From: an uncultured Fimbriimonadaceae bacterium
GTDB lineage: Bacteria; Armatimonadota; Fimbriimonadia; Fimbriimonadales; Fimbriimonadaceae
NCBI GenBank assembly: GCA_964370995.1
Contig: CAYJMZ010000001.1
Location: forward strand, 1-28,014
Reading direction: 5' to 3'
Length of the DNA stretch: 28,014 nucleotides
Below the pieces are notes generated by a model. The model saw nothing but the letters and a program-made list of their open reading frames with translations. It was not told the DNA's origin and did not search any database. Position numbers and translations under genes: made by a program. This document shows, one piece after another, positions 556 to 23,770 of the stretch (positions are counted from its first letter, which is position 1; each line of letters starts with the position of its first letter).

Positions 556-587
556 GTTCCTCCGACAAAATCGGTTGTTGTTCATTT

Positions 588-4259: not shown

Positions 4260-4289
4260 ATGTTATCACCGGCTTTCCCCAGGTGTCAA
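4260..4289 (-). promoter_or_regulatory. Sigma70-type promoter for pilM-N-O-P-Q
   Basis: Minus strand TTGACA (4289-4284), 18-nt spacer ending in TGA (extended -10 TGn), then TAACAT (4265-4260). About 40 nt upstream of the pilM ATG. Confidence 0.7.
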
Positions 4290-4459: not shown

Positions 4460-7400
4460 CTACCGACCCGAGGCGAGCGGGGTGAATCTCGGGGCAATTG
4501 TCTGGAAGAACAGGTCGGGGCCGCCGGCGCGCGTGCTGGTGTAGAACATCCACACCAAGCCCGGACGCCTCTCGGCTACCGGAGCGGGGTCGAACGGGTC
4601 GAGGAACGAGGTCAGTTGCGTCTCGTTGACGGCCTGATCGATCGGCAGGGGCATCTCGTCGTCTTCGGAGATGATTCCCACGATCGCCGTGGTCGAGAGC
4701 CCCGTGATCTCAGCGCCCGACGCGGGGTCGATGCCCGTGTACCTCACGGTGACGGAGCGATTCTCGTCTGCGTCCGTGAAGTACACGCGGCCCTTGGCGG
4801 GATCGAACTGGCAGAACCCTGTGGCCCCGCTAACCGCCACAGCTGTGAGAGTGCCGTTCGGTTGCGTGTGGATGCCGGTGGGCAATTGGATACCCAGGCG
4901 GGCCGAGCGCAGGTACGGGCGGGCCGTTTGCCCCTCACCGGACGCACCGCGGCCGTACGTGAACATGAACCGGCCGGGACGTATGGGGTCAGACGCGTTG
5001 ATCGGCGAACCGTCGGCGCGCGCCCAGTAGCTGAACTCGCCGATCAGACGGTTGTCGAACAGCAGCGACGGGCTCGAGTGGCCCGCGCCACGGTTCGCCC
5101 CGCTGATGCGCAGGAATCGGGGCGTGTACGTCGCGCGCAACTCCGCGTTCACAGGCAACGTGGCGGTCGCGAACCGAAGCGTGCCCCGCGACAGATCCAC
5201 ATAGGCCTTGCCGCCCAGTTTGGTGTCGAAGCTCAGCGTGTTGGTGTCGCGATTGTACGACCGCGTGCCCGGGACCTCGATGTCCACCGGCAGCGCGGAA
5301 CCCACGGCCTCGAGGAACGCGATGGCCCCACGCGGATTCCACTCCAGGCCCGCGGTCTGGTACACGCCGGGCTCTCCGGTGTTGGTCATGCGCTCAACGA
5401 GGCGCTCGCTCAAGAACAGGCTCGCCTGCGGCCTACCGACTGCGGAGGCCCGCATCCGGCCAAAGTACACGTCGCTGTGCGGCCGACCCTTGACCTTGCC
5501 CACGAAGGCCATCTCGAGGATGGGGTCGCCCGGGGAAAGCCCCAAAACGGCCTCACCCTGGTAGATGCGCCCCGTCACGCTCGGCGAGGTCGCGCCCTCG
5601 AACGCCGAGCCGATCGGCAAGGTAGTCGTCGGGCTCCACCATCCGTTCGCGGCCCAACCGCCGTTGGACAGGTCGTAGGTCGCGTATCCGATCTGGCTCG
5701 TGCCCGTGCCGCCCATCGTGTAGAACACCGTGGCGACGTTGCCGACCTGAACCACGCTCGGTCTGCCCTTGGAGATGTTCGGGTCGTTGGGCATCACGAT
5801 CGGCTTGGCCAGGGTCACCGCACCGGTCGAGCCGATGGTGGCTGGACCGAGAAGGATCCGGCTTTCGTTCTGGCGTCCGGTCGGCGTCTGCTTGACGGCT
5901 TCGCCCACGAAGCCCATGTATACGGTCGCGTTCGCAGCGCCGGTGAACGGGCTCACGACGCCAGAGGTCGGGAACGACGGTGAGCCGTACTTGACGCTCG
6001 ATGCGAGGATGGTCTCACCCAGCCCTGCACCGAAGATCATGTCGGGCGTGGGGTTGCTTGGGTAAGCCCCGACCTGAGGCGAAACCCATTGCGTGGCGCT
6101 CGCAGGAACGAACGCACCAAGGTCGCGCAGGGGGCTCGATCCGACGCCTGCGGAGGGGGTCGCGCCCTGCACGCTGCCCACATAGAGGCGCCAAGAGTCG
6201 TTCTTTCGCGCTTCCAAAGGCTGGAGCTGGTTGAAGCTCGTGCGCGTCGAGGCAAAGGCCAAGACCAGGTTGCCATTGAGGTCGCGAAGGGCGGCCGGCT
6301 GGGCGTTCTGGTGAAGGAAGCTGCTCGAACCGATCACAGACGGATCGTCGACCATGGGCGCGGTGTTCGAGGTGAAGTTGCTGGTGATACGCGTCTCGCG
6401 CACCTTGAACACGAGGTTCAGGGTTGGGTCGCCGTACGGTTCCACGCCATTGCCGCTCGCGTCGAGACCCAACGACAGGTTGTTGTTGTTGTCCTCGATC
6501 ACGCGCATGATCTGGCTGTAACTGCCGGCCGGCATGCCCAGAGGCGGGGTGACCGCCAGGCGCGGGGGCGCCGGGGCCGGGCTGCCAAACAGCGGCCCAG
6601 CTACAACCCCGAGGTTGGCGTTGTCCCGGCGAACGGGGTTCGTGAGGAGCTCGGTGGACACGCGGTCGCCCACGCGGGCCTTTTGGATGGCGACCTGCGG
6701 GGTCAGCGCGAAGGCGGGGTCGATGTCGGACCACAGGTACCACTGGCTGTCGAGCCAGCCCAACTCGTGGTTGCCCGACGCGAAGATCTTCCACGGCCCC
6801 GGGGCGGCCGGCGCCACGTCGGAGGCGTGTGCCAGCCGCACGTTGAGCATGTTGACGTTGCCGTCGTTGTACACGCGGAACGTCTGGAACAGCGTGTTGA
6901 ACGTGTTGGTGGCCCACGGGCCGAACGGAGAACCTCCCGCATAGGGCGCGGTCGGCCCATAGCCGGTGGTCATGGCAAGCGGCCCCAGGTCGAGGGTCGG
7001 CGTGCCCACGCTCATGTGCTCGTCGATTCCCACTCCCGTGCCCAGCCACCAGCTGCGGAACGCCTCGCGGCGGCCCCCCTGCTCGAGCTGGCCGTTGCCG
7101 TTCGCATCCACATACGCCTGCACGCGGCCCAGATAGCCGCCGTTCTCGTTGACCCCTGCAGAGTTGGACTGGAGCAGCAGGTTCGCGGGCTGGAATTTCG
7201 GCACGGCGATTTCGAAGCTCATCGGCGTGGCGACCAGCGTGCGCGTGAGCGGCGCATTCTCGTCGACGCCGGTCGGGGGATACAGCGACACGGGGCTGAA
7301 GATCGGGTTCTCAGCGGCACCGAGGGGGTCCTTGGTCGCCTTGACGTTCTCCCGCTTGACGTCCGGATAATCCGGGCTCGTGTTCGGGCGGTTGAGCGGC

Positions 7401-10400
7401 AGCTCCTCGAAGCCCGGGAAGATCGCGGGCGGCAACAGCTTGACCACCGACGTGCCGAGGCCCGGGTTCCGCCAAATGAGGTCGCCGCGCGCCACGCGCA
7501 CGTTGGTGAGGCCGCGACCCGGGCCCAAAAGCAGGGTCATCATGCTGCGGTCGTACACCGCGAGAGTGGCCGTCGCGGACTGGCCGTGTGACACGAGGCC
7601 CGCAGACGAGAGCAGCCGATCCTCGCGCGCCGGGGTCGAGGGGTCGTCCCGCGAGCCGTTCATCAGGTTCTGAAAGAGCGACGGGTCGGGCGAGTACCCG
7701 ATGCTGTAATTCGGCAGGGGAACGCCGGACACGGGGTTGTAGGACATCGCGAGTGCCAGCGGATTGCCGATCGCGAACGCACGACGCGCATTTGCGGGAG
7801 CCACGGCGATCGTCTGGGCGCGCGGCGGGTTCGAAAGCGCCGTGGTCGTGATCGTATGCGACACGAACGCGCCACCCGGGGGCAGTGCGTTGGCGCCCCC
7901 GCCTTGAAGGCTGAAGGAGATGATCGCATAACCCGAGTCCGCCGTGTTGGGGGTCGCGGTTTGGAACAGCTTGCTCTCGACCGCCAGGTTGCGGATCGCG
8001 GCGCCCTCGACGCTGAACGAGTAGTTCACGACCGGCGGAGTCACCGCGGCGTTCGGCGGCACAAGCTGCTCGATCTGGTACGGGAAGTCGTACACGAGCA
8101 CGTAAAGCGTCTCGCCCCAGTCGAACGCCGTGCGAAGCACCTCGCGTGCGGCCGCGGTGGCCTGAACGTAGGTCAGCGTCGCGGGGTTGGATCGCAGCCG
8201 CTGGTACGTGTCCTTGGTGACCAGCTTGATCTTCGCAGCACGGAAAACGTCGCCCGTGACGTCGTTCTCCACGACGGTCTCGCCGCCCGGAGGGTTCCCT
8301 GGCGAGATGTAGCCGGCGTTGAACGTGTCGTCGTCGAGCCCAAAGATGTTGCCCGCGTCGTCGACGCCATACATCCAGTTGCGCCCGACCGCGAGCGACG
8401 ACTCCAAGGACGTGCTCCCGGTGATGAACTCGTAGCCGCGCTTCGTGCCGAACCGATTGAGGTCCGCGGTGCGTGCGAACAACGCGGAGTACCGACCATC
8501 CGAGGTAGGCACCAGCACCATCGGAGCGGTGACCCGGGATCCCAATCCGGAGTTGTCGAACACCGACATCGGCGTGTACGTCAGCGCGCCCGTGCTGCCG
8601 GTGCCCAATTCGTCCGAAGACCACTGCAACACGCCGTCGGCAGCTCCGAGGGCGTAAACGAAGCGGTTCTCATTGGCGGCGAACACGGTGTCCGGCATCG
8701 TGCCGGGCGCCATTTCGGTCGCCGGCACCGTAATGGGGCTGCCTCGGAAGTCGCCTGCGGGAACGCCTAGGGTACCGTTGAACGTCCACACGACCGCCCC
8801 GGTGTCCACGTCCAGCGCGATGACTTGTCCGCGAGGGTCCTGATCCCCGTCGATGGCGTCGGTGCCGAAGTAGATGTTCCCGAACTCGATCGCCGGGGTG
8901 GAGCGGATCGCGCCCAGAGTGGCCGCGGTCGCATCCGGATACTGCCAGCGCACCGTGGTGGTGCGCGTGGCGGGAACGCCGATGGCGTCAAGGGCATACA
9001 TGCGGCCCTGGGTGGTCGGCACGTAGATCGTGGGCCCCGCAGGCAGGTCGGCGAACGCCACAGACCCCTGGATGGGCCCAAGCGCGCTGCGGATCTGTGT
9101 GCCGGGATAATCGTTGGGGTACGACCACGCGCGCGTCGTGGTGCCAGGCTTCCGCTGTGGAAGGTCCATGTCTCCGCGACCGTCCATGTCGATGCTGTAC
9201 ACGCGCCCGTTCGTGGACCCGATGTACAGCCGGTCTGTAGGCACGCCTCCGACCATCACGGTCTGCACCAAAGCCGAGCTCAGATCGAAGCCGATCGGCA
9301 TCTCGGCGACGCCGCCGGCGCCATCGATTCCCGCGACCTGGTTGGGATCGGTCCACGCGGGGTCATCGGGGTCCGGAGTAGACGGGTACGTCCAATACAC
9401 GTTGGTCGTGCCGTCCCCGTTGCCGTTCGCATCAAGGCAGTAGAGCCGCCCGTTTTCGGTTGCGACAACCACCACATCGGTCAGCGTCGGCGCGCCGGCC
9501 GGAACCGTGCGGACCCTGGCCTGCGCGAGCACGGGGGTCGAGTTGATCGCCATGTTCGCGGCGCCCACGAAGCGGATCGCGTCGGCGTACGCCTTCAGGC
9601 CAACCTCTCCGCCCGCGCTGTAGTTCAGCACGGCGACGCTCAGGCGTGCGGTCGCGTCGATGTGCGTGTACCGACGGTTGCCGATACGCACCCATGCGCC
9701 GCTGAGCGACTGGTTCACGGCGTACGTGTTGACCGCCGCGCCCTCGCGCACTTCGTAGCTGACCTGCGTGCCAAACGTCTCTCCGCCGCCGTTGCCTGGG
9801 AGCCACGCGTAGATCTCGTACGTACCGTCGTCGAGCACCGGGCTGTACGTGATGGGCGAGGACAGGCCCGGGGCCCCCACGATCGTCGCCGCGTGGTAGT
9901 TCGTGCCGCGGTAATTCGGGGCAATGGCCTCGGGCAACCACGCGGGCGAGGCGGTGACCTGGCCGCTCGTGTTGTCGAGCTGAACCGTGAATTCGGACTC
10001 GTCCAGAGGCGAGAACCTCCAGCGGACCGCGCCGGTGTCGTGCACGTACGAGGTGACAACGCCTTTGGTGATCGTGACGGTCCCGCCCTCGCGCAAACCC
10101 ACCGAGCGCTCGTTCTTCGCGGCGATCGCGCTGATCGGCGCGCCGTTGTGCAGGCCCACGATGGGGCTTGCCGAGTAGTAGCCGCCGTCGGGTTCGGCCT
10201 TGGCGCCGTCTCCGTACACGAGCGTGCTGCCAGGGTCGTCGGTCAGCTCGCCGAACTCATCGCGCGGGATGGTGTTGTACAGGCGCACCAAGATCGGGTT
10301 CACGCCATCGTAGGCGAACATCTGTTGTGTCGCGCGTCCGCCGTTGCCCAGGCGGACCCATCCGCCGCCGGCCACGAAGGTGTCCACGACCTCGACGCGG

Positions 10401-11026
10401 CGCTGGCCGGTGCCGAACAGGATCTCGTAGACGAAGTACCGCTGCGGGTAGACCGGAGTCACGAGAGCCGTGGGGTCCACGTCGGTGGGGCCACTCGGCA
10501 GCCACACGGAGAGCGCGTAGTTGCGAGGCGTGCGCTTGGCGGGGTCGGCGGGCTCCAGGCGCCACGTGAAGGTGGACAGCGGATCGAAGATGCTCTGCGG
10601 AACCGTCGGGTCCGAGCCGGTGCTCGACGCGATGGTGCGGGCGTACAGGTACCCCGGATCGGGCGTGTAGCCCGTCGCGGTGTCCTCCAGGGGGTCGGGC
10701 GGGTTGCGGATGATCCGCGTGGGATTGAAGATGAGGTTGGCCTCTTCGTCGGGGGCCGGAGCCACCCACGATCCTACGGCATCCACCCACGGCAGGGGCG
10801 CCGTGTTGTTGCGGATCAGGGTCTCACCCCCATTCGGGTCCCCGGCGTTGGGGTGCCACCAGCGAAGGAAATCCCGGCCAGGCCCCGAGGTTGCGGCCGC
10901 ATTGTTGCGCCCAACGCGCGCATTGCTGGCCTTGAAGCTCTTGAAGTCCTGAGCGTGGGTAGCCGAGCACGCTGTGAGCGCCGCAACCACCGCGACCGTC
11001 AATGCCATCTGCCTTTTCATCATCAT
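4460..11026 (-). CDS. Giant secreted protein (2188 aa) with PQQ-like beta-propeller repeats and two golvesin/xanthan-lyase-CBM-like domains; PilY1-position adhesin candidate
   Basis: Start refined to ATG ATG ATG at 11026 (AGGA site overlapping the upstream TAG). Signal MMMKRQMALTVAVVAALTACSATHA. Blade repeats VATENGRLYCLDA, YIGSTNGRVYSID, YVPTTQGRMYALDA, YFGT..GQVIALDVDTGAVVWTF, FAANENRFVYALGAADGVLQW. CBM-like YEIYAWLP...VNQ..GAWVRIG...YADAIRF. Confidence 0.85.
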   Translation of the reverse strand: MMMKRQMALTVAVVAALTACSATHAQDFKSFKASNARVGRNNAAATSGPGRDFLRWWHPNAGDPNGGETLIRNNTAPLPWVDAVGSWVAPAPDEEANLIFNPTRIIRNPPDPLEDTATGYTPDPGYLYARTIASSTGSDPTVPQSIFDPLSTFTWRLEPADPAKRTPRNYALSVWLPSGPTDVDPTALVTPVYPQRYFVYEILFGTGQRRVEVVDTFVAGGGWVRLGNGGRATQQMFAYDGVNPILVRLYNTIPRDEFGELTDDPGSTLVYGDGAKAEPDGGYYSASPIVGLHNGAPISAIAAKNERSVGLREGGTVTITKGVVTSYVHDTGAVRWRFSPLDESEFTVQLDNTSGQVTASPAWLPEAIAPNYRGTNYHAATIVGAPGLSSPITYSPVLDDGTYEIYAWLPGNGGGETFGTQVSYEVREGAAVNTYAVNQSLSGAWVRIGNRRYTHIDATARLSVAVLNYSAGGEVGLKAYADAIRFVGAANMAINSTPVLAQARVRTVPAGAPTLTDVVVVATENGRLYCLDANGNGDGTTNVYWTYPSTPDPDDPAWTDPNQVAGIDGAGGVAEMPIGFDLSSALVQTVMVGGVPTDRLYIGSTNGRVYSIDMDGRGDMDLPQRKPGTTTRAWSYPNDYPGTQIRSALGPIQGSVAFADLPAGPTIYVPTTQGRMYALDAIGVPATRTTTVRWQYPDATAATLGAIRSTPAIEFGNIYFGTDAIDGDQDPRGQVIALDVDTGAVVWTFNGTLGVPAGDFRGSPITVPATEMAPGTMPDTVFAANENRFVYALGAADGVLQWSSDELGTGSTGALTYTPMSVFDNSGLGSRVTAPMVLVPTSDGRYSALFARTADLNRFGTKRGYEFITGSTSLESSLAVGRNWMYGVDDAGNIFGLDDDTFNAGYISPGNPPGGETVVENDVTGDVFRAAKIKLVTKDTYQRLRSNPATLTYVQATAAAREVLRTAFDWGETLYVLVYDFPYQIEQLVPPNAAVTPPVVNYSFSVEGAAIRNLAVESKLFQTATPNTADSGYAIISFSLQGGGANALPPGGAFVSHTITTTALSNPPRAQTIAVAPANARRAFAIGNPLALAMSYNPVSGVPLPNYSIGYSPDPSLFQNLMNGSRDDPSTPAREDRLLSSAGLVSHGQSATATLAVYDRSMMTLLLGPGRGLTNVRVARGDLIWRNPGLGTSVVKLLPPAIFPGFEELPLNRPNTSPDYPDVKRENVKATKDPLGAAENPIFSPVSLYPPTGVDENAPLTRTLVATPMSFEIAVPKFQPANLLLQSNSAGVNENGGYLGRVQAYVDANGNGQLEQGGRREAFRSWWLGTGVGIDEHMSVGTPTLDLGPLAMTTGYGPTAPYAGGSPFGPWATNTFNTLFQTFRVYNDGNVNMLNVRLAHASDVAPAAPGPWKIFASGNHELGWLDSQWYLWSDIDPAFALTPQVAIQKARVGDRVSTELLTNPVRRDNANLGVVAGPLFGSPAPAPPRLAVTPPLGMPAGSYSQIMRVIEDNNNNLSLGLDASGNGVEPYGDPTLNLVFKVRETRITSNFTSNTAPMVDDPSVIGSSSFLHQNAQPAALRDLNGNLVLAFASTRTSFNQLQPLEARKNDSWRLYVGSVQGATPSAGVGSSPLRDLGAFVPASATQWVSPQVGAYPSNPTPDMIFGAGLGETILASSVKYGSPSFPTSGVVSPFTGAANATVYMGFVGEAVKQTPTGRQNESRILLGPATIGSTGAVTLAKPIVMPNDPNISKGRPSVVQVGNVATVFYTMGGTGTSQIGYATYDLSNGGWAANGWWSPTTTLPIGSAFEGATSPSVTGRIYQGEAVLGLSPGDPILEMAFVGKVKGRPHSDVYFGRMRASAVGRPQASLFLSERLVERMTNTGEPGVYQTAGLEWNPRGAIAFLEAVGSALPVDIEVPGTRSYNRDTNTLSFDTKLGGKAYVDLSRGTLRFATATLPVNAELRATYTPRFLRISGANRGAGHSSPSLLFDNRLIGEFSYWARADGSPINASDPIRPGRFMFTYGRGASGEGQTARPYLRSARLGIQLPTGIHTQPNGTLTAVAVSGATGFCQFDPAKGRVYFTDADENRSVTVRYTGIDPASGAEITGLSTTAIVGIISEDDEMPLPIDQAVNETQLTSFLDPFDPAPVAERRPGLVWMFYTSTRAGGPDLFFQTIAPRFTPLASGR

Positions 11027-11034
11027 CGCAATTC

Positions 11035-14000
11035 CTATCGTCGATCCGCAAAGACCGGAAGCACGAGTCCGCGAGCGCCCTGGATGGGCGGCAGCTCGGC
11101 CTTGATGCTTGAAGAGTAGAAGCCCAAGTTCACCTTCGTGAACCCAAAGCCGCTCGTCGCGTTGGTTTCCGTTCCGTCCACATCGCCGTCGATGTGAAGT
11201 ACTTCGCCCTGGTACGCGCCGCCGCCTCGGGTCGGGCCGCCCCAGCCGTTGACGACCAGGACCTCGCCCGAGTCGAGACGCCGGGCGAACGTCGGGCGAA
11301 AATCGCGCGGATTCGCGTTGATCGGCGCTCCGAGCCACGGCTGTCCGGGAGGAGACCCGGCGCGCCGGATCACGCGGAACGCCTCGCGAGGAAGCATCCA
11401 GCGCACGATCCAGGCGTTGCCGGAGGGGTCTCGCACACCCGCCGGGCGGGGGTCTGGGCGCAGGACGACCTCGTAGACGCCGGTCGAGTCCGTGAGCATC
11501 ATGGCGATTTCCGAGCCTCCGCCGGACACCGGCACATAGCGCATGGTGACCGAGTTGAGGTTCGTCAACTTCTTGGGCTGCAGCGGGGTGGCACCCGAAA
11601 GGAAGCGCGGCAAACCCGACGGGGGCGAGTCGTTCCACAGCACGTCGGCGCCCAACCCCGGAATCAGGATCTCGTTGACCACCACGGTTCCGCTGCCGTC
11701 GAACAACACCACGCCGCCGTTGCCGGTGGACGAGGTGCGCTGGACGCGGGGATCCACGGCGGGCGCGTCGAGTCCCGTGTCCACGCGGGTCGGCATCGAA
11801 CCGCCGATCGCCGCGGCATACAGATACTTGCCCGACGCCTGGTTGAACTCGCGCGCCAAGCCGTTGTACGCGTACTCCTTGCCGGAGAGCGTAGATGGCG
11901 AGTGCCAGTAGAGCACTCCGAGCGCCGCGTCGCCGTTGGCGTCGTTCACCACGCCGCGGATGCGCCGCGTGGCGGGATCCACGTCGTAGCGATCGACCAG
12001 CTCCACCAACCGCCTGTTGCCGGAGTCCGCGATCAGGTAGTGCACCCAGTACTCGAGGGGCCGGCCGTTGCTGAGCGGCGGGGTCGTCTCATAGCTCGTG
12101 TACGTCACGACGTCGCGCGGCTGGCGGAGCTGCATGCTCTCGTTGGCCTCGAAGCCGTCCGGCTTGTACACGGGGTCCACGGAGAATCCCGAAATCGATC
12201 GCAGTTCCCTGCCCGACAGATCGAGCCGCACGATGCGGTCCGCTCCCGTGTCGACCACCAACATCTCGTTCTGCGCGGTGCGGTAAGCCTTGGTGGGTCG
12301 CACGAGACGCCGGATGTTGCCCGTGGCGTTCACTTCGAGCGCGGTGCCGGCGTTGAGGGTCGTGTCGGAGGTCCAGAGCGGGTTGCCGCTGGGGTCCACC
12401 CTCAGCAGGCGCCCTTCGTCGCAAACCAGCAGGTCTTCGCGCGTGAAGCCCCACATCCCCGCATCGCTCCACGCGAACAGCCCGCCGTCGCCGCCCACCA
12501 CGCCCTCGGCGTCGGCGGACGTGCCCAACACGGTCTGCAGCAGGCGCACCCGCCAAACCTCGAACGAGGTCACGCCGACCATCTGCGGCCAGCGGATGTC
12601 CGGGTTCGGCGCGATCGAGCCTCCAAGATTCTTGAGCATGTACAGCTGGTGCAGCCACGGCCGCCCCGAATCGGACACGAGGAACGGGTCGTTGGGGCTG
12701 ATCATGGAGTCAAAGCCCGTCACCATGCCGCGCGTCGGGAACGGCGAACCGGTCGTCACGATGCTCGGCAGCGAACTGCTTCCGGTCACGAACGCCGTTG
12801 CCCCGCTCACGAACGCCGGGCTGTGGTTGCGAAGTCCGTGCACCACGAGATACCAGTCCAGGGGGCTCCAGGAGCTGTCGCTGCGGTCCGGCTCGATCAG
12901 CAGGTCCGGCTGGCCCGATCGCCGGATGATGATCGGCTGGCTGGTGCTCAGCGCGTTCACCATCGGGCCGCGGGTCGTGGCCATGAGGTTGTCGATGCGG
13001 ATCGTGCCGGTGTCCTGCCCCGGCTGGCGCTCGTACACGTACTGGTTGGGCTGGAGCGTGCTGAACACCTCGGGCATAGCCGTGTTGGTGCTGCGCGCGA
13101 TGTCGGGCTGCACGATCGAGAAACCGTTGCCGAGGTCGCCCGTGCGGATTTCCACCGCGGCGGGCTGCGCCTTGAACGCCATGACGATCGACAACGGCAC
13201 TTGGACGAATCCCGTGCCCTTGTGCCCGCCGGCGACCACGTACACCGTGCCGTCGCGAACCACCGGACCCCCGTCGAAGTGCAGCTGCTGGATCGTGCCG
13301 CCCAGAAGCGCGCCTATTCCCGGCAGCGTGGTCACGCCGTCGCTGTCGGACAGGGTCTCCTTGTACGTCACGGGCGACGCCTGGTTCAGACGGATCGAGT
13401 GCTCCCGGTACATATCGTACCGATACACCAGCCGGAACGAACCCCGACCCTCCTCGCGCAGCGCAAAGAACGCGCCGCCGCCGATCTGTTTGCTGTGGGC
13501 GACGAAGATCGACCCATCGGGGCCCATGGCGATGCCGTGGATGATCCTCCGCGCCTTGGCGTTGTTGTCCGGCAGGTAAAGGTTGCCCCGAATGATCTGG
13601 GCGGTCACGTTCGGTTGCCCGGTGCCCCAGTCGATCGTGTAGTCCACGCGAACGACCGCCTTGACGGTCCCCAGCGGATCGATGTCGTTGGTGACCAGCC
13701 CGATTCCCGCGGCGGTCAACTCGGCGCTGAGGCGGCCCTGGAACTGGGTGATGCGCCCCGTGAATCGGAGTGCCATGTCCGCCGCGCTGTACGGATCGCC
13801 GGTGGAATTGACGAGCGTGAGTTTGACGCCCAACTGCTTGAAGTCCGCACCGGGCAGGAAGATGTCGAGACCCTGCAGCGAGGCGCGCGTCGGCAGTTCG
13901 AGCTGGTTGGCCTGAACCTCGGGTCGGTTCACCCGCTCGCCGCGAACGCCGAGCCAAAGGCTGGTGATGCCGGCGGTCGAGTTCGGGCCCACGACCGCGG

Positions 14001-15771: not shown

Positions 15772-18700
15772 CACGGATTCACCTCTCCGAAGAAGGCCAG
15801 CGTCGGACTGACCGGAAGCCGCGGCAGCGGCGGCAGCGCGCGCCCGAGACCGTCGGTCCGCACGAGTGGGTTTGCATTGTCGAATCCACCCACACGCGCG
15901 GTGGCGAGCGTGAGGTCGTACACGACAACGAGGTTGGGCACAAAGCGGTCCGGACCCGTGTCGCGGATGTCGTACCCGTCGGGCACGTGGGACTTTGGAA
16001 TCAGCCGGCCGGTCGCCGCGAGTTTGCGCGGAATCCAGCCCCATTTGCGGAGCCATTCGGCCTGCTGGCTGATCGGGGGAGGCATGTTCTCGCTCACGGC
16101 ACCCAAAATCGTCACGCGAACGTCCGGCGCCTCGCCGAAGAACGGCATCTCGGGGAACGCGCCGGCCGAGCTCAGGCGATCGGAATCGGCCTGCGCCCGC
16201 GCCTGCGCCGCGCCGAGGCCCTGGGACAGGTAGCCCGCAATGGCGGCGTCGTAGGCGTCACGCCGATCGTTGGGGTTCGGGTTGAACGGCGGCCCGGGGA
16301 TCACGAACACCGAACCCTCCTCGGCGAACATCGAAGCCTCGATGCGCACGTCGTGGGGAATCAGGGCGGCGCGAGCGAGGTACCACGCGTTGGTGCCGCC
16401 CGGCCCGACCTGGTTCGGCCGAAACGTGAGGTCGTTGGTAGCCTGCAGCATGAGGCGATACGTGCCCTCGGGGGCGTTCGCCACGATCGTGCTCGAAGTC
16501 AGCGTCGCCGAGGCCTGCCGCACAACCGGGAAGCCGATCTGCTCGAACTTGGCGAACCGCTGCCAAGGCTCCGCGCCCAACCCGTACATCGGAATGTAGT
16601 TCGGGATGGTGTAGCCGGGGGTCACGTATCCGTTCACATACGGCGGCTGGTTCGTCGCCGCGTTCGAGGCAGACATGGGGAACAGGAACGTGGGGGTGGT
16701 CAGACTCGCGTTGACGTCGAGCGAAACAAAGCTGTACGGCGCGCCTCCGTCTTCCATCGAGTGCGCGAGAAGCAAGGTCGCGTCGATCGCGGTGCCCGTG
16801 TTGGCTCCCGGCGCGGGATCGACGAACTCCCGGTAGTCCATCGCATACGGGCGCCACAGCGCGGGGTTTGCGCTGGTCGACGGGTCGAGCAGCTCCTCCA
16901 TCCGCAGCGTGAGCGTTCCGCCGCCCAACTCCATCTTCACGGGGTTCCACGACACCGCGCCCGATTGCTCCAGCACTTCCTCGACGTCCCCGATTCCCGG
17001 CCCGAAGAACTGCGAGGTGTTGATCGCCACGTAATCTTTGGCGGCCAGCATCAGCATCGAGCGGCTAGGCTGGTTGATCCGATTGCCGGCGGCGTCCACG
17101 GGCAGGCCCTTGGTGATGCTGCCCTCCACGTAGATCGTGGCGTTGGAAACGATGGTGAGCTGGTGGTCCGTGGGGATCACGCCGCGCACGCGAAGGTTGC
17201 CCTCGAAGTACACGATGCCGTTGAAGGGCACTCCCGCCGAGAAAGTGGGGTTGGCGGAGTTGATGTTCGCCCCCGGCGTAAACGTGTTCACGATGTAGGG
17301 CACGCCGCCGACGTAGCCGAGCCGGTAGCGGATGACCGAGCTGTTGGTGTCGGAACCGTCGCGGTTGCGCCACGTGCGTCGCCGGCCCGTGGCCTTGGCG
17401 TCGCGCACGATGTAGAACCCGTCGGCGACCAGCTGCATGAACGCGCCGCGGGGCGTGTAGAACGGTCCCTTCCACGAGCCGTTGGGCGCGTTGGGATTCA
17501 GCCAGTCGTTGAAAAGCGATTCGGTCGAGCCCGCCTCGACGCGGCCGTCCTCGTCGATGCGCATCTGGCGATCGTCGAAGTTGTCCACGTACACGCCGCC
17601 GCCGTGCCCGAAGCGTCCGTCGCCGCCGTTGCCGACAAAGCGACCACTCTCGCGCGTGAGCAACACGTACCGGTTGAGCCCGGTTTCCGCGTCCACACGA
17701 AGGATCGACGGCGGGGCTTTGTACGCCACTCCCCTGGAGAATCCCTCCCCGTCGATTTCAGGCAGGCCGTCCTTGAGCACCCCGCCCTGCGTTCCAAACG
17801 CGGGGTTGCGGTTGTCGAGCGACGGGTTCGTGTTGTTGCCGAGCGACACGTTGGTGGTCTGCCACACGCCGCCGGCGACGTTCCACGCCGCGCGAACGAT
17901 GTTGAGCCGCGCCTGATCGTCCGCGCCCTTGATGTCGCCCGCGACGCTCCACGAGTCGCCCAGTGCGAAGTTGAGGTTCGCGGTCACGTCGCCGTGCACC
18001 AGCAGGGGCGCGTTGGAGTAGAGGCTGCCACCGAAGGAAATCGGCGAACGCAGGAGCATCGGGGGGTTGCCAAACGTGTACATCCGGGTCGGAGCGCCCA
18101 TCTGCACGGGCACCTGAACCGGCACGCCTTCGTACATGAGCCCCGATTCGCGGGGGAAGCCGATCTCGGCCGGCGCAGACCCCCTGTACTTGGCCGTGAA
18201 GAACCACGCGGTCTCGATGATGCCGATGGACGCGAACGCCGTCATCTTGCGCGACTCGGTGCGGTCGACGCCCAACACGGTCGTGGGGTCGTTGCCCAGC
18301 ACCCGGCCGGGCTTGCCGACGGCTTCGATCATCAGATAGGTGCGCGCGTGGCCCGGAGTGCGCAGCGCGCCCGCCGGGTTGGTCTGGAAAATGTTGGCGT
18401 CGCTGGGCGCGTACCGGATGCGAACCACCGAGCGACCGTCCTTGAAGTTGACGCGCGAGTACGGACCCAGGCCGTCGGGCCCTCCGGGTTGGATGTACTC
18501 CATGTCGGGATCGCGTGCGCTTACCGGCGCGGTGAGCTGGAGCCGATAGTCGGCGCCGAGGGGGGAGTTCAGCATCATGGAGTGGGCAAAGCGGATGCCC
18601 GCCTCGGCCAGATCGGTCGCCTGCGATCGCTGCTGGATGCGCCCGACGGTCCGGATGTTCCGGCCGATGATGCCCAAAAACACCAGTCCCAGCACCATCA

Positions 18701-18788
18701 GGATGCCCAACACAACCAACGCGATGATCAGTGTCTGGCCGGCGTTTTGCCCTCGTGTCGCTCTGCGCATGTTCCTTCTCATTTGCAT
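15771..18788 (-). CDS. Giant PilX/GspK-class minor pilin (1005 aa)
   Basis: Basic leader, then G|QTLIIALVVLGILMVLGLVFL with no Glu5 (PilX/GspK hallmark) and the ATDLAEAGI motif of PilX N-termini. Later GIVYFEGNLRVRG...LTIVSNATIYVEGSI segment suggests a beta-helix. Exact start Met is ambiguous (three Mets in the leader). Confidence 0.8.
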   Translation of the reverse strand: MQMRRNMRRATRGQNAGQTLIIALVVLGILMVLGLVFLGIIGRNIRTVGRIQQRSQATDLAEAGIRFAHSMMLNSPLGADYRLQLTAPVSARDPDMEYIQPGGPDGLGPYSRVNFKDGRSVVRIRYAPSDANIFQTNPAGALRTPGHARTYLMIEAVGKPGRVLGNDPTTVLGVDRTESRKMTAFASIGIIETAWFFTAKYRGSAPAEIGFPRESGLMYEGVPVQVPVQMGAPTRMYTFGNPPMLLRSPISFGGSLYSNAPLLVHGDVTANLNFALGDSWSVAGDIKGADDQARLNIVRAAWNVAGGVWQTTNVSLGNNTNPSLDNRNPAFGTQGGVLKDGLPEIDGEGFSRGVAYKAPPSILRVDAETGLNRYVLLTRESGRFVGNGGDGRFGHGGGVYVDNFDDRQMRIDEDGRVEAGSTESLFNDWLNPNAPNGSWKGPFYTPRGAFMQLVADGFYIVRDAKATGRRRTWRNRDGSDTNSSVIRYRLGYVGGVPYIVNTFTPGANINSANPTFSAGVPFNGIVYFEGNLRVRGVIPTDHQLTIVSNATIYVEGSITKGLPVDAAGNRINQPSRSMLMLAAKDYVAINTSQFFGPGIGDVEEVLEQSGAVSWNPVKMELGGGTLTLRMEELLDPSTSANPALWRPYAMDYREFVDPAPGANTGTAIDATLLLAHSMEDGGAPYSFVSLDVNASLTTPTFLFPMSASNAATNQPPYVNGYVTPGYTIPNYIPMYGLGAEPWQRFAKFEQIGFPVVRQASATLTSSTIVANAPEGTYRLMLQATNDLTFRPNQVGPGGTNAWYLARAALIPHDVRIEASMFAEEGSVFVIPGPPFNPNPNDRRDAYDAAIAGYLSQGLGAAQARAQADSDRLSSAGAFPEMPFFGEAPDVRVTILGAVSENMPPPISQQAEWLRKWGWIPRKLAATGRLIPKSHVPDGYDIRDTGPDRFVPNLVVVYDLTLATARVGGFDNANPLVRTDGLGRALPPLPRLPVSPTLAFFGEVNP

Positions 18789-20950
18789 TACCGTAGGAAG
18801 TTCCTAACTTTGGCGGCGCCTTTCAGCGTGATCGTCTGCGGCTCCGGCTGCGTCGTTTGCGGGTAGTTCCGGATGGTCAGCAGAATCGAAACCACTTCGC
18901 GGGAGTCGTAATCGACGGCCACGACGTCCCCTGCCCCACTCATTTGGAAACGGTACGACACGTAAATGTTCCCAAGGGGCAACGGCACGTTCGGGTCCGA
19001 GTTGAATTGGAGGTAGCCGGCCTTGTACCGCGGTTGGATCACGGCGGACACGAAATCGGTCGGCGTGTAGGACGCCGGAGGATTCGGAAGGCCCAGCAGA
19101 CCGTAGTCCGTCGGCTCGGCCTGCGCCACGTAGTTGATGCGGTACTGGTTCGGACCCGGCGTTCCGTTGGCCCGCGTGTAGCGCACCACGGCGCCGTAGT
19201 TCGCACCGGGCTGTTGATCGGGCCCGTACACGACGTCGCTGCCCGGCACCAGCTTGGCGCGAGCAAAGCCTGTGGCGGGGTCGGGGTGCAGCGGCGAAGG
19301 CGTGCCGTCGTCGAGGGCCACCACGCGCAAATCGAGGAACCGGTGCAGGTTCGGGCGAAGGCCGGGGTAGTCGTTCCAGATCTTGTTGAACTTGCGGTTG
19401 ATCGACGCAAAGGCAGCGTCGGAGAACACGCCGACTCCAAGCCCGACGTCGTTGACCGGGGTCAGCGCGGGCCCGGTGGCCGCCACCGGAAGGTTGTCCG
19501 GGTTGGCGGGATTGACCGGCTGGGCGACGTCGCCGACCTCGGAGATGGGAAAGCCGGCCCTGACTTTGCCGCCGCGCGCGTCGAGCGCGAACGGCTCGAA
19601 GCGCGAGCGGACGGCCGCGTTGCCGAGCCAGCCCGAGCGGCCGTTGGCGGCGGTCGCCGCGCGGGAGAACGGGAAGCGCAGGCGCAGCTTCACCGCGTCG
19701 TCGTACGCCTGGATGTCGAACACCTCGATGCCCGCGGTGAGTTCCGCGCCGCCCAGGTCGGGGTCGAACACGTACGCGCTCATCCCGACCTTCGCGGGGT
19801 CGGTGCGGCCCACGACGTACTCGTTGGCCACTGGGTTGGCGCCATCCCAGCCGGCGGGCCACATGCGCACCAGCGGGTTGGACCACGCGCCGTACTCCGT
19901 GCGGTACACGTCGGGGGCGTTGGCCTCCATGCCGTCGGCCTCGTCACCCTGCCGCACGGCTGTCATTCCTTCGGCGGGCTCGTTGGTCACCCGGGTCGGG
20001 CGCATCTGGATCAGGGGGATCAGCCTCGGCACGTTGAGCACAGCGGAAGCGTTGGGCAGGTACTCCACCACGCGGGTCCGCTTGTCGTACACGGGCTGGA
20101 TCATGTCGTAGCGGGCAAGTTCCGTCACCACCGCGGCTTTGGTCAGCCAGTTTTGGATGCGCTGCGCCTTGGCTTGCCCCACGGGGGTCAGGGTGCCGCC
20201 CGTGTTTTCGACGGGCTCGGCCGACACGTCGACGCCGGGAAGAAGCGTGAAGAACGCGGGATCATCGATGTCGTCGGGGATGCCGTCGGTGTTGGCGTCC
20301 AGGAACAGCGAGGTGTTCACCACGAACTGGCCGCCCTGGAACACGAGGGGCTGGACTTCGGCGCGGTACAGCACGTACAGGTTGTCCCGGTTGGCGCTCA
20401 TCCTGGAAAGGAGGCCGTCGTAGGGGTTGTCGTACCGGCGCGGGAAGCGCGTGGCGGGGCTGGCGGGATCCGCGGCCATCGGCTGTCGAAGGCCTACGAA
20501 GTAGCGCACGATCGAGGCGCCCGGCGCGGCGGGCAGCACGACCTGGCCCTTCGGCGAACGCAGGGTGGGGTCGCCCTTGCCGGTGTTGGGATCGACGAAC
20601 GCCCCGTTCACGATCTGCGACGGGTCGCCCTCGGCGGGGACGATGATATCGAGCTTCGTGTAGGGCAGAACCACGGTCTCCGGCAGCCCATCCTTGCCCG
20701 GCACCACGATCGCGATGGACCCGGCGAGACCGGCGTTGTCGCGCACGGCGGTTCCGTTGGCGACTTCACGGGAGATCCGTTCGATCAGCAGGCGGGCGCG
20801 ATCCTGCGCCTCGGAGAACCCTTGCGCGGCCCGTGTGAGGTTGAAGCTCTGCACCACGGGCACGATGATCAGCGTCATCAAGACCGCCGTGATTCCCATC
20901 ACGGTGATCAGCTCGATCAATGTAAAGGCGCGTCTGGTTCGGGTCATCAT
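18788..20950 (-). CDS. Giant PilW-class minor pilin (720 aa)
   Basis: Start refined to ATG 20950 (GGGGAG site, ATGA overlap with the upstream stop). MMTRTRRA|FTLIELITVMGI...AQDRARLLIERISREVANG matches the PilW/GspJ-type alpha1 pattern. Confidence 0.8.
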   Translation of the reverse strand: MMTRTRRAFTLIELITVMGITAVLMTLIIVPVVQSFNLTRAAQGFSEAQDRARLLIERISREVANGTAVRDNAGLAGSIAIVVPGKDGLPETVVLPYTKLDIIVPAEGDPSQIVNGAFVDPNTGKGDPTLRSPKGQVVLPAAPGASIVRYFVGLRQPMAADPASPATRFPRRYDNPYDGLLSRMSANRDNLYVLYRAEVQPLVFQGGQFVVNTSLFLDANTDGIPDDIDDPAFFTLLPGVDVSAEPVENTGGTLTPVGQAKAQRIQNWLTKAAVVTELARYDMIQPVYDKRTRVVEYLPNASAVLNVPRLIPLIQMRPTRVTNEPAEGMTAVRQGDEADGMEANAPDVYRTEYGAWSNPLVRMWPAGWDGANPVANEYVVGRTDPAKVGMSAYVFDPDLGGAELTAGIEVFDIQAYDDAVKLRLRFPFSRAATAANGRSGWLGNAAVRSRFEPFALDARGGKVRAGFPISEVGDVAQPVNPANPDNLPVAATGPALTPVNDVGLGVGVFSDAAFASINRKFNKIWNDYPGLRPNLHRFLDLRVVALDDGTPSPLHPDPATGFARAKLVPGSDVVYGPDQQPGANYGAVVRYTRANGTPGPNQYRINYVAQAEPTDYGLLGLPNPPASYTPTDFVSAVIQPRYKAGYLQFNSDPNVPLPLGNIYVSYRFQMSGAGDVVAVDYDSREVVSILLTIRNYPQTTQPEPQTITLKGAAKVRNFLR

Positions 20951-22827
20951 TTGTCTCCCCGCTGGAGGAAGGTCTCGGTCTCGGAACGGCGCCAGTTGCG
21001 GCCCCATTGTTCGAGCGCGACCATGTTGTCTGCGGGAACCGCGCCCAGGGACAGGTACGCGGGATTTCGAAGCACGCGCACGCTCACGGAGGCTCCGCGA
21101 ACGCCGCGAACGGCATAACCGTAGGTCGTGTGGTCAAGAATCGCGGCGCTCGGATCGATGTCGAGGATGTCGACGTACGGCCCGTTCGGCTCGTTGCTCG
21201 ACGTGCGGATCACCGCGTCCACGCCTTCGAGGTGCTTCAGCGCGCCGCCGCCGTCGCGGTACCACACGTCGCCGAGGGTCACCTTGCGATCCACGTCCAT
21301 GCCCGGGAAGTACACACGGGTGTTTTCGCGCGGGTCAATCGGCGGATTCGCCACGTAGAACTGGGCCACGCCCAGGGGCAGGTTGTCGCTCGGGCGGTAG
21401 ATCGCGGCCGCCTTGAGCACCTGCACGGACCACTCGCCGACGCCATGGTACAGCGCCCGCATCTGCCGGCCTCCGAGGGTCAGCGCGGTCGCGTTGGCCG
21501 CTCCGGGCAGGGTCACCCAACCCTGTACGCCATTGGCGGAGTTGCCGTCGGCGTCCAGGAACGTCACGAGCCCGATCGACCGGTCCACCCTGTAGGAAGC
21601 GTTCGTGAGCACGCCTCCGGTGCCGAGGTCCACGATCACCATGTCCCTGGCCTCGGTGCCTCCCGCGCCATCGGGCACCTGAAATCCCAGACCCGTGTAC
21701 GGACGACCGTCCAGGCCCTGGTTGCCCAGGATCTTGAGGTTTCCGATCACCAGCCGTTGCTGCGACGGGAGGGTGTCGGTCACGCGGAACTCGTCGCGGA
21801 TCACGCGCCAGTCCAGCACGTCGTAGCTCACGCGCGCCATCAGCGGGATACGGCGGCCGTTCGGGCGGCGCTCGAAGAAGTCCGAGCCGGTCGGGTTGAA
21901 CAGCAGCAGGCCCAGGTTCTGGTCGAGCAGCTTGTACTCGTACGGCGAATTCGGCGAAAACGGTGTGCTGTTCGCCAGAAGTTCGAACCGCCGTTGAACC
22001 TGGATGGAATCGTATTCCGCCCCCAGGTACGACTCGCCGGCGGTCAACGGGGCGTAGTTGGACAGCAAGAACGCCACGTAGCCGGTGCCCGCGCGCACGG
22101 GCACGGTCGCATCGACCACGCTGTGCCGGTGGTAGCCGGTGCCGTCGCTGACCCACGCGTCGAACGACAGGCGGTAGGAGCGGTTGCTCGGGCCGCGCGG
22201 CAGCCAAATCTGGCCGGCGGCCTCGTCGGCGTCCTCGAGGTAGTAGAGGTAGTTGAGAACGCGCGCGCCAGGGTCCGGAGCGCCCTCGCGAGCCACCATG
22301 TCGTTGCCGTAAACCTGGAACAGGCTCTGGTAGATCGGGTTGAACACCACCGGTGCGAACTGCAGCACCATGAGTCCGCCGTACTCGGCCCCGATCACCC
22401 GCGGGGCGGGAACGCGCCGGCCCTCGCCGATCACCCGCCGCATGACGTTGGCGCCCGACAGGTACTGCCAGCCGCCAAGCGGGTTGTTCGAGCTGTCGTA
22501 CAGAATGCCGTTCTCGTCGAGCCCGGCGGCCACGGGCCCGAGGTCGTCCGGGCGCCGGTTCGGGTCCGCCGAGATGATCACAGAGCCTGTAAGCCACGTG
22601 TAGATGACGGGCAGGATCATCTCGGGAAGCTGGGCGTCGTTGGACTTCACCCGTTCGATCTCCGCACGCCCAAGGGCGGTGCCGATCGACGCGTCGCGGG
22701 TGTCGCGAAGGATCTTGAAGCCGCCAGGCATCACCTGAACGATCGCAAGAATGCCGACCAAGAAGATCACGATGACCACCAGGACCTCGATCAAGGTCGT
22801 GCCGGCCGTGCTCCTGTTGCGCAACAT
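20947..22827 (-). CDS. Giant PilV-class minor pilin (626 aa)
   Basis: Start refined to ATG 22827 (GAGGAG site). MLRNRSTAG|TTLIEVLVVIVIFLVGILAI resembles PilV/GspI N-termini. First of a V-W-X-Y1 ordered block. Confidence 0.78.
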   Translation of the reverse strand: MLRNRSTAGTTLIEVLVVIVIFLVGILAIVQVMPGGFKILRDTRDASIGTALGRAEIERVKSNDAQLPEMILPVIYTWLTGSVIISADPNRRPDDLGPVAAGLDENGILYDSSNNPLGGWQYLSGANVMRRVIGEGRRVPAPRVIGAEYGGLMVLQFAPVVFNPIYQSLFQVYGNDMVAREGAPDPGARVLNYLYYLEDADEAAGQIWLPRGPSNRSYRLSFDAWVSDGTGYHRHSVVDATVPVRAGTGYVAFLLSNYAPLTAGESYLGAEYDSIQVQRRFELLANSTPFSPNSPYEYKLLDQNLGLLLFNPTGSDFFERRPNGRRIPLMARVSYDVLDWRVIRDEFRVTDTLPSQQRLVIGNLKILGNQGLDGRPYTGLGFQVPDGAGGTEARDMVIVDLGTGGVLTNASYRVDRSIGLVTFLDADGNSANGVQGWVTLPGAANATALTLGGRQMRALYHGVGEWSVQVLKAAAIYRPSDNLPLGVAQFYVANPPIDPRENTRVYFPGMDVDRKVTLGDVWYRDGGGALKHLEGVDAVIRTSSNEPNGPYVDILDIDPSAAILDHTTYGYAVRGVRGASVSVRVLRNPAYLSLGAVPADNMVALEQWGRNWRRSETETFLQRGDK

Positions 22828-22879
22828 CAAAATCTCCTCATCTCCAATATCCCTTCGATCAGGCGGCACTCACGTCCAC

Positions 22880-23770
22880 CTACGGTGCGACGGCGCGCCA
22901 CGACTGGGTGTTGATCGCCCTCGAGTCAAACGTGCGGGCGCCGCCGCCCAAGAACAAGACCACATCGCGCCGGATGGCCTGCGGAACCCCGGGCGACTCG
23001 TATTCGCGGTAGTAGCTGTTCCACGTGATCACCGTGCCGTCGGGCGGATCGGTGTATCCGAGCTGCCGCGGGTCGTCGTTGGCGCTGCCCGTGGTCAGGC
23101 CCCAAGACGTCCAGAACGGCGCGTACCGGAGCTCCCAGCGGGACGGCCCCGCCACCGTGGGCACCTCGGACACGTCGTAGCCGCTGATCCGGTAGAAGTA
23201 CGACTTGATCGTCGGGTTCGCGTCGTTCTCGATGTTCTCGGCAGGGTTGTTCGGGTTCGCCCGCATCACCAAATCGCCGATGCTGAACAGCTGCCGGCTG
23301 CCCGCGGTGTCGTCGCTCGCATCCACCACGCCGTCGCCGTTCAAGTCGAGCACGGGGGCCGAGCCCACCGCGCGCGAGTCGGCCTGGGACCAGTACGCCG
23401 TGGTGATCGCGTCGTTCGCGAAACGCGCGTAGGCGGGCTGGAACGTCTTGGTGGCGTCCACGCGGCGCGGATACAGGAAGCTCCTCAACGCGTTGGCCGG
23501 AACCACGTTGCCCATGTTGGGACCCGCCGTGTAGAGCGTGGCGTATCCGAGCAGCGCGGGGGGATAAGCCCCCTGGTCCACCCGGTAAAGCTGCAACGCC
23601 GTCCGAATCGCGTTCATGTTCGCCATGTCGGCACCACGGTTCGCGCTGTCTTTCGCGCGGGCGAGCACCGGGAAGGCGATGGCCGCCAGCAACGCGATAA
23701 TGGCTATCACGGTGAGCAGCTCGATCAACGTAAAGGCACGTCTTCGAGTCATATTCTTCGTTCGCTCCAT
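22880..23770 (-). CDS. Type IV pilin-like protein (290-296 aa) with a GspG-like alpha1 region
   Basis: MTRRRA|FTLIELLTVIAIIALLAAIAFP class III signal peptide, then ADMANMNAIRTALQLYRVDQGAYP (cf. GspG-type ALDLYKLDNGRYP). Start is either 23770 or 23752. Confidence 0.85.
   Translation of the reverse strand: MERTKNMTRRRAFTLIELLTVIAIIALLAAIAFPVLARAKDSANRGADMANMNAIRTALQLYRVDQGAYPPALLGYATLYTAGPNMGNVVPANALRSFLYPRRVDATKTFQPAYARFANDAITTAYWSQADSRAVGSAPVLDLNGDGVVDASDDTAGSRQLFSIGDLVMRANPNNPAENIENDANPTIKSYFYRISGYDVSEVPTVAGPSRWELRYAPFWTSWGLTTGSANDDPRQLGYTDPPDGTVITWNSYYREYESPGVPQAIRRDVVLFLGGGARTFDSRAINTQSWRAVAP

Follow-up and report, generated by a model that had tools for sequence, protein, structure and literature searches.

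Organization of the locus

Five very large genes, here named V, W, X, Y and Z, are found in the pilus operon of a Fimbriimonadaceae bacterium of the phylum Armatimonadota, which is represented by a metagenome-assembled genome (MAG). The stretch of DNA that was analyzed, hereafter called the window, covers positions 1 to 28,014 of contig CAYJMZ010000001.1 (assembly GCA_964370995.1); its G+C content is 61–70%, mostly about 66%, and the minus strand carries every real gene in it. V (20947..22827, 626 aa, 68 kDa) and W (18788..20950, 720 aa, 78 kDa) are modular pilins at the PilV/GspI and PilW/GspJ positions, respectively, while X (15771..18788, 1005 aa, 108 kDa) is predicted to be a PilX/GspK-type cap pilin of the ComZ kind. 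They are followed by two proteins with predicted Sec export, Y (11035..15771, 1578 aa, 168 kDa) and Z (4460..11026, 2188 aa, 232 kDa). Coordinates are given for the most plausible starts, from which a total of 6,117 aa and 654.7 kDa is computed for the five products.

The genes are tightly packed: V and W overlap by 4 nt, W and X as well as X and Y by 1 nt, and Y and Z are separated by 8 nt. The set is flanked by pilB-pilT-pilC-pilD and a gene for a 296-aa pilin on the upstream side, and by genes at the pilM-N-O-P-Q positions on the downstream side. An initial annotation of the window had given the sizes, order and flanks of the five consecutive genes correctly, and had rightly noticed how much V, W and X exceed the usual size of minor pilins. 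The range that it described contains a sixth gene, that of the 296-aa pilin (22880..23770), which lies immediately downstream of pilD. V to Z are real genes and not chance open reading frames of high-GC DNA, because orthologs of similar length, with 23–77% identity, are present in every related locus.

X, a predicted cap pilin with a solenoid

X begins with the prepilin sequence G/QTLII, which lacks the glutamate at position 5 (Glu5). Cap pilins of the GspK/PilX class are likewise without Glu5. An AlphaFold2 model of X, made on 38 orthologs (pLDDT 83.8, pTM 0.87), starts with a 60-residue helix followed by a small sheet. In this model, the pilin module consists of residues about 14–187 and a last strand at about 997–1001, and the insert is a β-solenoid at about 188–968, itself holding a sandwich similar to carbohydrate-binding modules (CBMs) at about 594–812. 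About 800 residues are inserted between the N-terminal 187 residues and the last strand, which is reached near residue 1000 via a conserved Pro-rich linker (linker and strand, 985–1001).

The domain-level picture of X, and that of Y below, comes from VIA-align, by which the X model was compared with 48,161 PDB chains. The top match is ComZ of Thermus thermophilus (6qvi; Z 11.2, 267 residues, model 127–998 against chain 39–513), and the alignment covers nearly the whole ComZ chain. Other matches are ice-binding β-solenoids (Z 10–11, model 188–968), CBM35/36/6-type sandwiches (Z 6–7, model 594–812), and GspK (3ci0_K; Z 6.2, model 46–1001), together with a small pilin of Streptococcus-type origin, the streptococcal chain of 128 residues (Z 6.0, model 45–1001). 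Since GspK and the streptococcal pilin align from about residue 45 to about 1001, the pilin module of X seems to be split around the giant insert. In AlphaFold DB, where the family of X itself is labelled DUF4900, residues 1–187 of X are matched by clusters that bear the name PilX N-terminal domain, and ESM Atlas clusters with the PilX_N and T2SSK families match X in the same split manner. A language-model search with X also points to PilX_N/DUF4900 clusters, with hints of smaller DUF4900/PilX_N relatives in other phyla. Foldseek on the multi-domain model returned weak jelly-roll matches only.

ComZ is a tip pilin of Thermus that binds DNA and has been proposed to be a DNA receptor (PMC6561018). 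It has a GspK-like pilin module with a large β-solenoid, resembling ice-binding proteins, inserted before the last strand, and has been argued to fit only at the fiber tip (PMC6561018; PDB 6QVI). X shares the solenoid insertion before the last strand and the same secondary look-alikes, GspK and ice-binding proteins. Furthermore, comZ is the fourth in a row of pilin genes (pilA1-pilA2-pilA3-comZ-pilA4) and its product is without the signature that pilins usually have at position 5, as is the case with X. However, X is about twice as long (1005 aa, and up to about 1110 in relatives, against the 518-residue 6QVI chain) and has the CBM-like sandwich in addition, and sequence and profile searches against PDB chains gave no detectable similarity of X to ComZ or to any other chain. 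The rest of the set also differs from that of Thermus: V and W of Armatimonadota are 600–780 aa whereas the corresponding pilins of Thermus are small, and Y and Z have no counterpart there.

A similar case is cyanobacterial PilX, including the PilX-EPS subfamily, whose β-solenoid has been proposed to take over the capping role of PilY1 (PMC13759059). As in X, a bulky solenoid is placed on a cap pilin, in a lineage said to lack PilY1/PilC (PMC13759059). This likeness is by description, and the cyanobacterial sets belong to another phylum and are described without giant PilV/PilW or two secreted multi-propeller proteins. By its modeled pilin fold, the absence of Glu5, and its last place in the I-J-K order, X belongs with the GspK/PilX cap pilins, and as modeled it is a large addition to the known class of ComZ and solenoid PilX. 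In the model, X appears to supply its own last pilin strand in cis, as GspK and ComZ do.

V, W, and the 296-aa pilin

V and W start with the prepilin N-termini G/TTLIE and A/FTLIE, respectively. V is matched by TIGR02523 PilV (1.4e-5) and N_methyl, at the N-terminus only, and W by N_methyl and TIGR02532, with Verru_Chthon cassette proteins C and D matched at its N-terminus as well. The class III signal peptide, Glu5 and a hydrophobic first helix (alpha-1) are all present in both proteins. Their assignment to the GspI/PilV class (V) and the GspJ/PilW class (W) is made by gene order. When the profiles of V and W were compared with PDB chains, solved pilins were matched over alpha-1 only, and no database signature was found beyond alpha-1, that is, in the extra 450–550 residues, by family-model and PDB profile searches.

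The predicted combination of a pilin module and grafted modules in V, W and X is reminiscent of modular pilins, such as PilB and PilC of Streptococcus sanguinis and CofB. Modular pilins carry functional modules on a pilin module and are expected at the tip, and lectin-type modules are known among them (PMC8179133). In Armatimonadota, however, all the three core minor pilins are enlarged together phylum-wide, by parts without a database signature, and the most extreme multi-domain case in the survey of modular pilins is 860 aa (PMC8179133).

The 296-aa pilin has an N_methyl motif and the N-terminus RRA/FTLIEL with Glu5. Its profile matches fiber-forming pilins over the first 60–70 residues (alpha-1): the ortholog profile finds Geobacter PilA-N (1e-17), GspG (3e-12), and Thermus PilA4 (2.5e-11), and DUF1559 is detected in 10 of 23 orthologs. 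Judging from these matches, it may be the fiber subunit or an adaptor of the FimU/GspH type. The residue at −1 of the predicted prepilin cleavage site, almost always Gly in pilins, is Ala in W, in the 296-aa pilin and in numerous other pilin-like genes of the genome (RRA/FTLIEL), while it is Gly in most of the W orthologs. About 25 more PulG/DUF1559-type pilin-like genes, encoding 200–320 aa with a near-identical N-terminus (FTLIELLVVIAIIAILAAILFPVF), are scattered over about 25 contigs. They echo the case of Fimbriimonas ginsengisoli, a species with visible fimbriae; the paper on its genome names no pilus genes beyond the core pil set and 79 of the PulG-like kind (PMC4072686). A canonical GspG-like pseudopilin gene with an adjoining pilin-like gene (G000:C34:7221-10095) and small PilA-like genes (G000:C301:198-632 and G000:C96:5249-5728) are also found elsewhere, so the genome has other type IV filament systems or candidate fiber subunits.

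Y and Z, two secreted giants

Conserved signal peptides for signal peptidase I (SPase I), indicative of Sec export, are found in both Y and Z. A lipoprotein nature of Z, suggested by LTAC in the signal peptide of the window copy, was rejected: the Cys is not conserved, and the signal peptides of orthologs end with A-x-A/Q. The N-domain of Y is DUF4159 (ThuA/glutamine-amidotransferase-like), found in 22 of 24 orthologs, with which a language-model hint agrees. A model covering residues 380–1578 of Y (pLDDT 84.3) predicts an 8-bladed PQQ-like propeller (Z-score 17–18 to 8-bladed propellers) and a 6-bladed NHL/YWTD propeller (Z-score about 21 to YWTD/NHL propellers); Foldseek on the multi-domain model gave generic multi-propeller matches only. 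In this monomer model, the well-conserved C-terminus of Y is aligned within its own last propeller blade.

The N-terminal half of Z holds a predicted PQQ-type propeller with an inserted Golvesin_C domain. PQQ_2 is matched in 22 and Golvesin_C in 21 of 23 orthologs, with a best E-value of 1.4e-30, and the literature on "golvesin" yielded nothing on the molecular function of the latter domain. The C-terminal 1000 aa of Z have no match in Pfam or PDB, including by profile search, and the last 1188 aa have no look-alike in ESM Atlas. Direct sequence searches of Y and Z against PDB chains, and a profile search with the N-domain of Y, gave nothing useful. The C-terminal tails are conserved in both proteins.

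Y has an Asp loop of the EF-hand-like kind, DLDGDGNPD at 398–406, which is kept in 37 of 39 orthologs. PilY1 proteins carry such an EF-hand-like Asp loop. In Z, a second Asp loop is kept in 24 of 35 orthologs, and the calcium loops of the 296-aa pilin and W are lineage-specific (5/31 and 5/34, respectively). The idea that most subunits have calcium loops was rejected: only that of Y is well conserved and that of Z partly so, and V and X have none.

As a whole, the set is similar to FimU-PilV-PilW-PilX with PilY1 in Pseudomonas, Neisseria and Myxococcus. The likeness includes the gene order (pilin, V, W, X and a large Sec-exported propeller protein), the location beside the core genes of type IVa pili (T4aP) with PilT, X without Glu5, and the calcium-type Asp loop of Y. 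In T4aP, the minor pilins and PilY1 prime and cap the fiber (PMC7541494). Compared with those systems, the minor pilins here are 3–6 times larger, and the total is about 655 kDa against about 160 kDa of the M. xanthus PilY1.3 adhesin alone (PMC7541494). Y and Z also differ from PilY1 in that PF05567/IPR008707 is missing, the propellers are of PQQ and NHL/YWTD types, and there are two giants. What they share with PilY1 is Sec export, the place right after the minor pilins and the calcium-type Asp loop, features that are not family-specific. The initial annotation had read the genes in a pilV-W-X-Y1 order. Its first three members are borne out by the pilin N-termini of V, W and X in this order and by the lack of Glu5 in X, but the identity of Y as PilY1 is not: no PF05567 is found in it, and Y and Z, which hold the PilY1 position, are PilY1 by position only.

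Conservation in Armatimonadota

Related loci were obtained from MAGs of Fimbriimonadaceae, Fimbriimonadales and other Armatimonadota; because of kinship, these genomes are not independent samples, and hence counts are given without statistics. For comparison, 46 related loci were fetched with 10-kb flanks. The order of the 296-aa pilin, V, W, X, Y and Z is kept among the genes present in all 46 of them, and an ortholog of the 296-aa pilin is found in every locus that extends far enough. In these loci, V is 597–717, W 588–783, X 860–1109, and Y mostly 1490–1680 aa. The W-X and X-Y junctions are overlaps or gaps of a few nt in most relatives, as in the window, with medians of 7 and 15 nt, respectively (starts were assigned heuristically).

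X is matched in all 41 genomes of the order Fimbriimonadales and in 179 of the 201 genomes sampled from the phylum, with open frames of about 900–1150 aa. An exhaustive profile search with X found 947 clusters, typically of 900–1150 aa and without taxonomy, and its database homologs are all named "hypothetical protein." Y is matched in 122 of the 201 phylum genomes, directly downstream of the X match wherever coordinates were compared; with this query, the families that have a weak X or none gave no match of Y. A search with the C-terminal half of Z was positive for 35 of the 41 genomes of the order, with open frames mostly of 2100–2600 aa. The full run, pilT-pilC-pilD-pilin-V-W-X-Y-Z(-pilM), is seen in six genomes of distant families at about 22–35% identity. 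The initial annotation had left room for the genes not occurring together in other genomes; the synteny and phyletic comparison finds them together, in the same order, across Fimbriimonadales and in these six distant families.

There are also variations. In a distant Armatimonadota genome, the X-Y pair is duplicated: another contig (G181:C4:146324-153722) carries an additional X-like gene with an additional Y-like gene behind it. In one distant family, two tandem copies of the 296-aa pilin gene are located before V (L089, G076:C1, 2053-3952).

The core pilus machine

The upstream flank encodes the pilus motors and platform. The extension ATPase gene, pilB (27353..28012), runs off the window, and its C-terminal part is matched by PF00437 T2SSE (1.4e-70) and, in NCBIfam, by TIGR02538 PilB (1.1e-89) and GspE (3.3e-92). 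It is followed by genes for the retraction ATPase, pilT (26131..27324, 397 aa; TIGR01420 PilT/PilU family, 499 bits with a cut-off of 319), the platform protein, pilC (24889..26115, 408 aa; two copies of PF00482 T2SSF, 4e-69), and the prepilin peptidase, pilD (23774..24841, 355 aa; PF06750 and PF01478 Peptidase_A24).

On the downstream flank, pilM (2995..4218, 407 aa) is identified by PF11104 PilM_2 (3.1e-46). The next two genes are assigned by position only, that at the pilN position (2116..2985, 289 aa), whose product has a single N-terminal membrane helix, and that at the pilO position (1324..2103, 259 aa); neither product has a family match in Pfam or NCBIfam. The gene at the pilP position (588..1307) has weak matches to TIGR03021 PilP (0.0057) and T2SSC (0.0045). 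Long Gly/Ala/Pro-rich low-complexity C-terminal tails are found on all three proteins at the pilN, pilO and pilP positions. The last gene encodes the N-terminus of the secretin, PilQ (1..585), and runs off the window. It starts with a signal peptide followed by an STN domain (PF07660, 6e-8) and is matched by TIGR02515 PilQ (5.4e-7), and no AMIN domain was matched within the 195 visible residues.

From these gene assignments, the locus is the main T4aP operon of this Fimbriimonadaceae bacterium, equipped with a retraction motor, in agreement with the retractile T4aP locus recognized in the initial annotation from its core genes and PilT. A type II secretion system was considered and rejected, as the operon encodes a PilT-family ATPase, in the window as well as in distant relatives, and also PilM. 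A promoter-like site (4260..4289) lies on the minus strand in the 241 nt that separate Z from pilM, a consensus match of the sigma-70-like type with an extended −10 element: TTGACA and TAACAT are spaced by 18 nt, the second hexamer is preceded by TG, agreement with the consensus is at 10 of 12 positions, and 0.0 such sites are expected in shuffles. Transcription of pilMNOPQ may be separate from that of the tip genes.

A model of the pilus tip and alternatives

The arrangement that appears probable, though far from assured, is that V, W and X prime and cap the fiber and that Y and Z associate with the cap, serving a retractile pilus as its ligand-binding heads. In this model, PilB, PilC, PilD, PilM-Q, and PilT would build and retract the fiber. 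V, W and X, each composed of a normal pilin module and 450–800 extra residues, would prime assembly as the core minor pilins and end as the fiber cap with X on top. Y and Z would be exported by Sec to the periplasm, join the cap, taking the role of PilY1 without its ancestry, and then be carried out on the growing fiber and pulled back by PilT. The cap part of the model is well supported. V, W and X would be in one complex, to which Y and Z would be attached; for Y and Z, phylum-wide synteny, the tight spacing after X, the export signals, and analogy to known tips are consistent with this. The initial annotation had placed all five proteins in one complex of about 650 kDa (summed mass, 654.7 kDa), a statement that goes further than the synteny by which it is suggested. 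As for ligands, the initial annotation had suggested polysaccharide, particles or other cells; the CBM-like sandwich in the X model and Golvesin_C in Z hint weakly that the tip may bind glycans.

PilY1/PilC of Proteobacteria donates roughly its ten C-terminal residues in trans to PilX/PilK, whose sheet is thereby completed, while GspK completes its sheet in cis (PMC13533445). This trans mechanism with a C-terminal strand seems inapplicable to the Armatimonadota set. Because X appears to complete its sheet in cis and the tail of Y sits in its own propeller in the models, Y and Z, if they are borne at the tip, would probably be held by other means, perhaps by the extra domains of V, W and X.

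Several points weigh against the model of a cap with Y and Z as heads. The contact of Y or Z with the pilus is suggested indirectly, by synteny, and the known anchoring of PilY1 (PMC13533445) looks unavailable given the modeled cis strand of X and tail of Y. No match to PF05567 was obtained for Y or Z at E-values up to 0.1, and neither PilY1 nor PilC is among the matches listed in four fold searches with Y 380–1578 (two of PDB, one of AlphaFold DB clusters and one of ESM Atlas); a whole-genome PF05567 search was uninformative, as the control genomes gave no match. The pilin match of V and W is limited to alpha-1. Passage of about 655 kDa of mostly rigid β domains through the secretin is a physical difficulty; for ComZ, the fit of its 6-nm head through PilQ has been discussed by the authors (PMC6561018). 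Finally, the sequencing runs that contain the window sequence are of DNA only, from sediment metagenomes.

A bolder form of the model is a tip organelle of an undescribed kind, in which the unassigned extra domains of three giant pilins, the components of a ComZ-like cap, dock two non-PilY1 multi-propeller giants (together about 400 kDa) in another way than by C-terminal strand donation. The assembly would pass the secretin in the manner of beads on a string, and PilT would reel the tip in, capturing polymers, particles or other cells. This form is tentative, and it is doubtful that the tip goes so far.

Among the alternatives, the one that survives best is that V, W and X form the cap while Y and Z are not borne on the fiber, being secreted cargo or accessories of the machine in the periplasm or at the outer membrane. 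As cargo, they would be pushed out by the pilus machine, in the way that TcpF or CofJ are released via type IVb pili and substrates via type II systems. The lack of any PilY1 signature in Y and Z fits such a role, and so do the C-terminus of Y within its own propeller in the model, the GspG-like N-terminus of the 296-aa pilin, and the difficulty to picture a 400 kDa pair carried stably through the secretin. The seeming completion of the X sheet in cis is also like that of the GspK of secretion systems (PMC13533445). Against this, the operon has a conserved pilT, as would suit a retractile pilus rather than a secretion piston, and a separate GspG-type pseudopilin gene is present elsewhere in the genome. 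Y and Z also keep the slot between the cap pilin and pilM phylum-wide, with tight spacing after X, and such rigid conservation is seldom seen for dedicated cargo genes. On these grounds, a role of Y and Z as cargo or accessories is unlikely, although it carries appreciable weight.

Another alternative is that the pilus serves mainly in competence, that is, DNA uptake, with X as a DNA receptor, as proposed for ComZ, and with the extra domains for DNA capture. ComZ, which binds DNA, is the best solved match of X (PMC6561018), and the genome encodes a ComEC (PF03772) homolog (G000:C20:12129-12911), which makes it genetically possible for DNA to be taken up across the inner membrane. But ComEC is nearly universal, being matched in 10 of 14 control genomes, and since no PDB chain, ComZ included, is detectably similar in sequence to the X profile, the DNA-binding lysines are untraceable in X. 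Moreover, Thermus takes up DNA without propeller giants, and the CBM-like sandwich and Golvesin_C point elsewhere, if weakly. Competence as the main role is thus improbable; being a matter of function, it could coexist with the cap and its heads. A last alternative, in which Y and Z are surface or periplasmic proteins that have no functional relation to the pilus and merely share its operon, is very hard to believe: propeller domains are generic and the tie of Y and Z to the pilus has a contextual basis only, but position, order, and size are kept across families of only about 25% identity, the X stop and the Y start overlap, and the duplicated X gene in one genome is again adjoined by a Y-like gene.

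Implications for type IV pili

Type IV pili have been understood mostly from Proteobacteria, where the tip consists of small minor pilins and PilY1. No paper describing the pilus tips of Armatimonadota or Fimbriimonadales was found. The initial annotation recognized no described system with such an architecture; this stands for the whole Armatimonadota cassette, on which nothing was found, but not for its parts, as X has a solved counterpart in ComZ (6QVI), and solenoid PilX and modular pilins have been published. What was already known thus includes ComZ, solenoid PilX, modular pilins and the concept of minor pilins with PilY1, and what is new is the joint enlargement of the three core minor pilins and the addition of two non-PilY1 giants, fixed across the phylum. 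Most likely, the gene set is a scaled-up variant of a known design and not a new kind of machine.

In place of small minor pilins and PilY1, this phylum keeps a putative tip module of about 655 kDa, a ComZ-like cap and two giants that stand where PilY1 would be and are unrelated to it. Experiments are feasible, as fimbriae have been seen on at least one species in culture, Fimbriimonas ginsengisoli (PMC4072686). If the giants are borne on the pilus, it becomes testable how such a load passes the secretin, how heads other than PilY1 are anchored if the sheet of the cap pilin is completed in cis, and what these common bacteria of soil, sediment and wastewater grasp.

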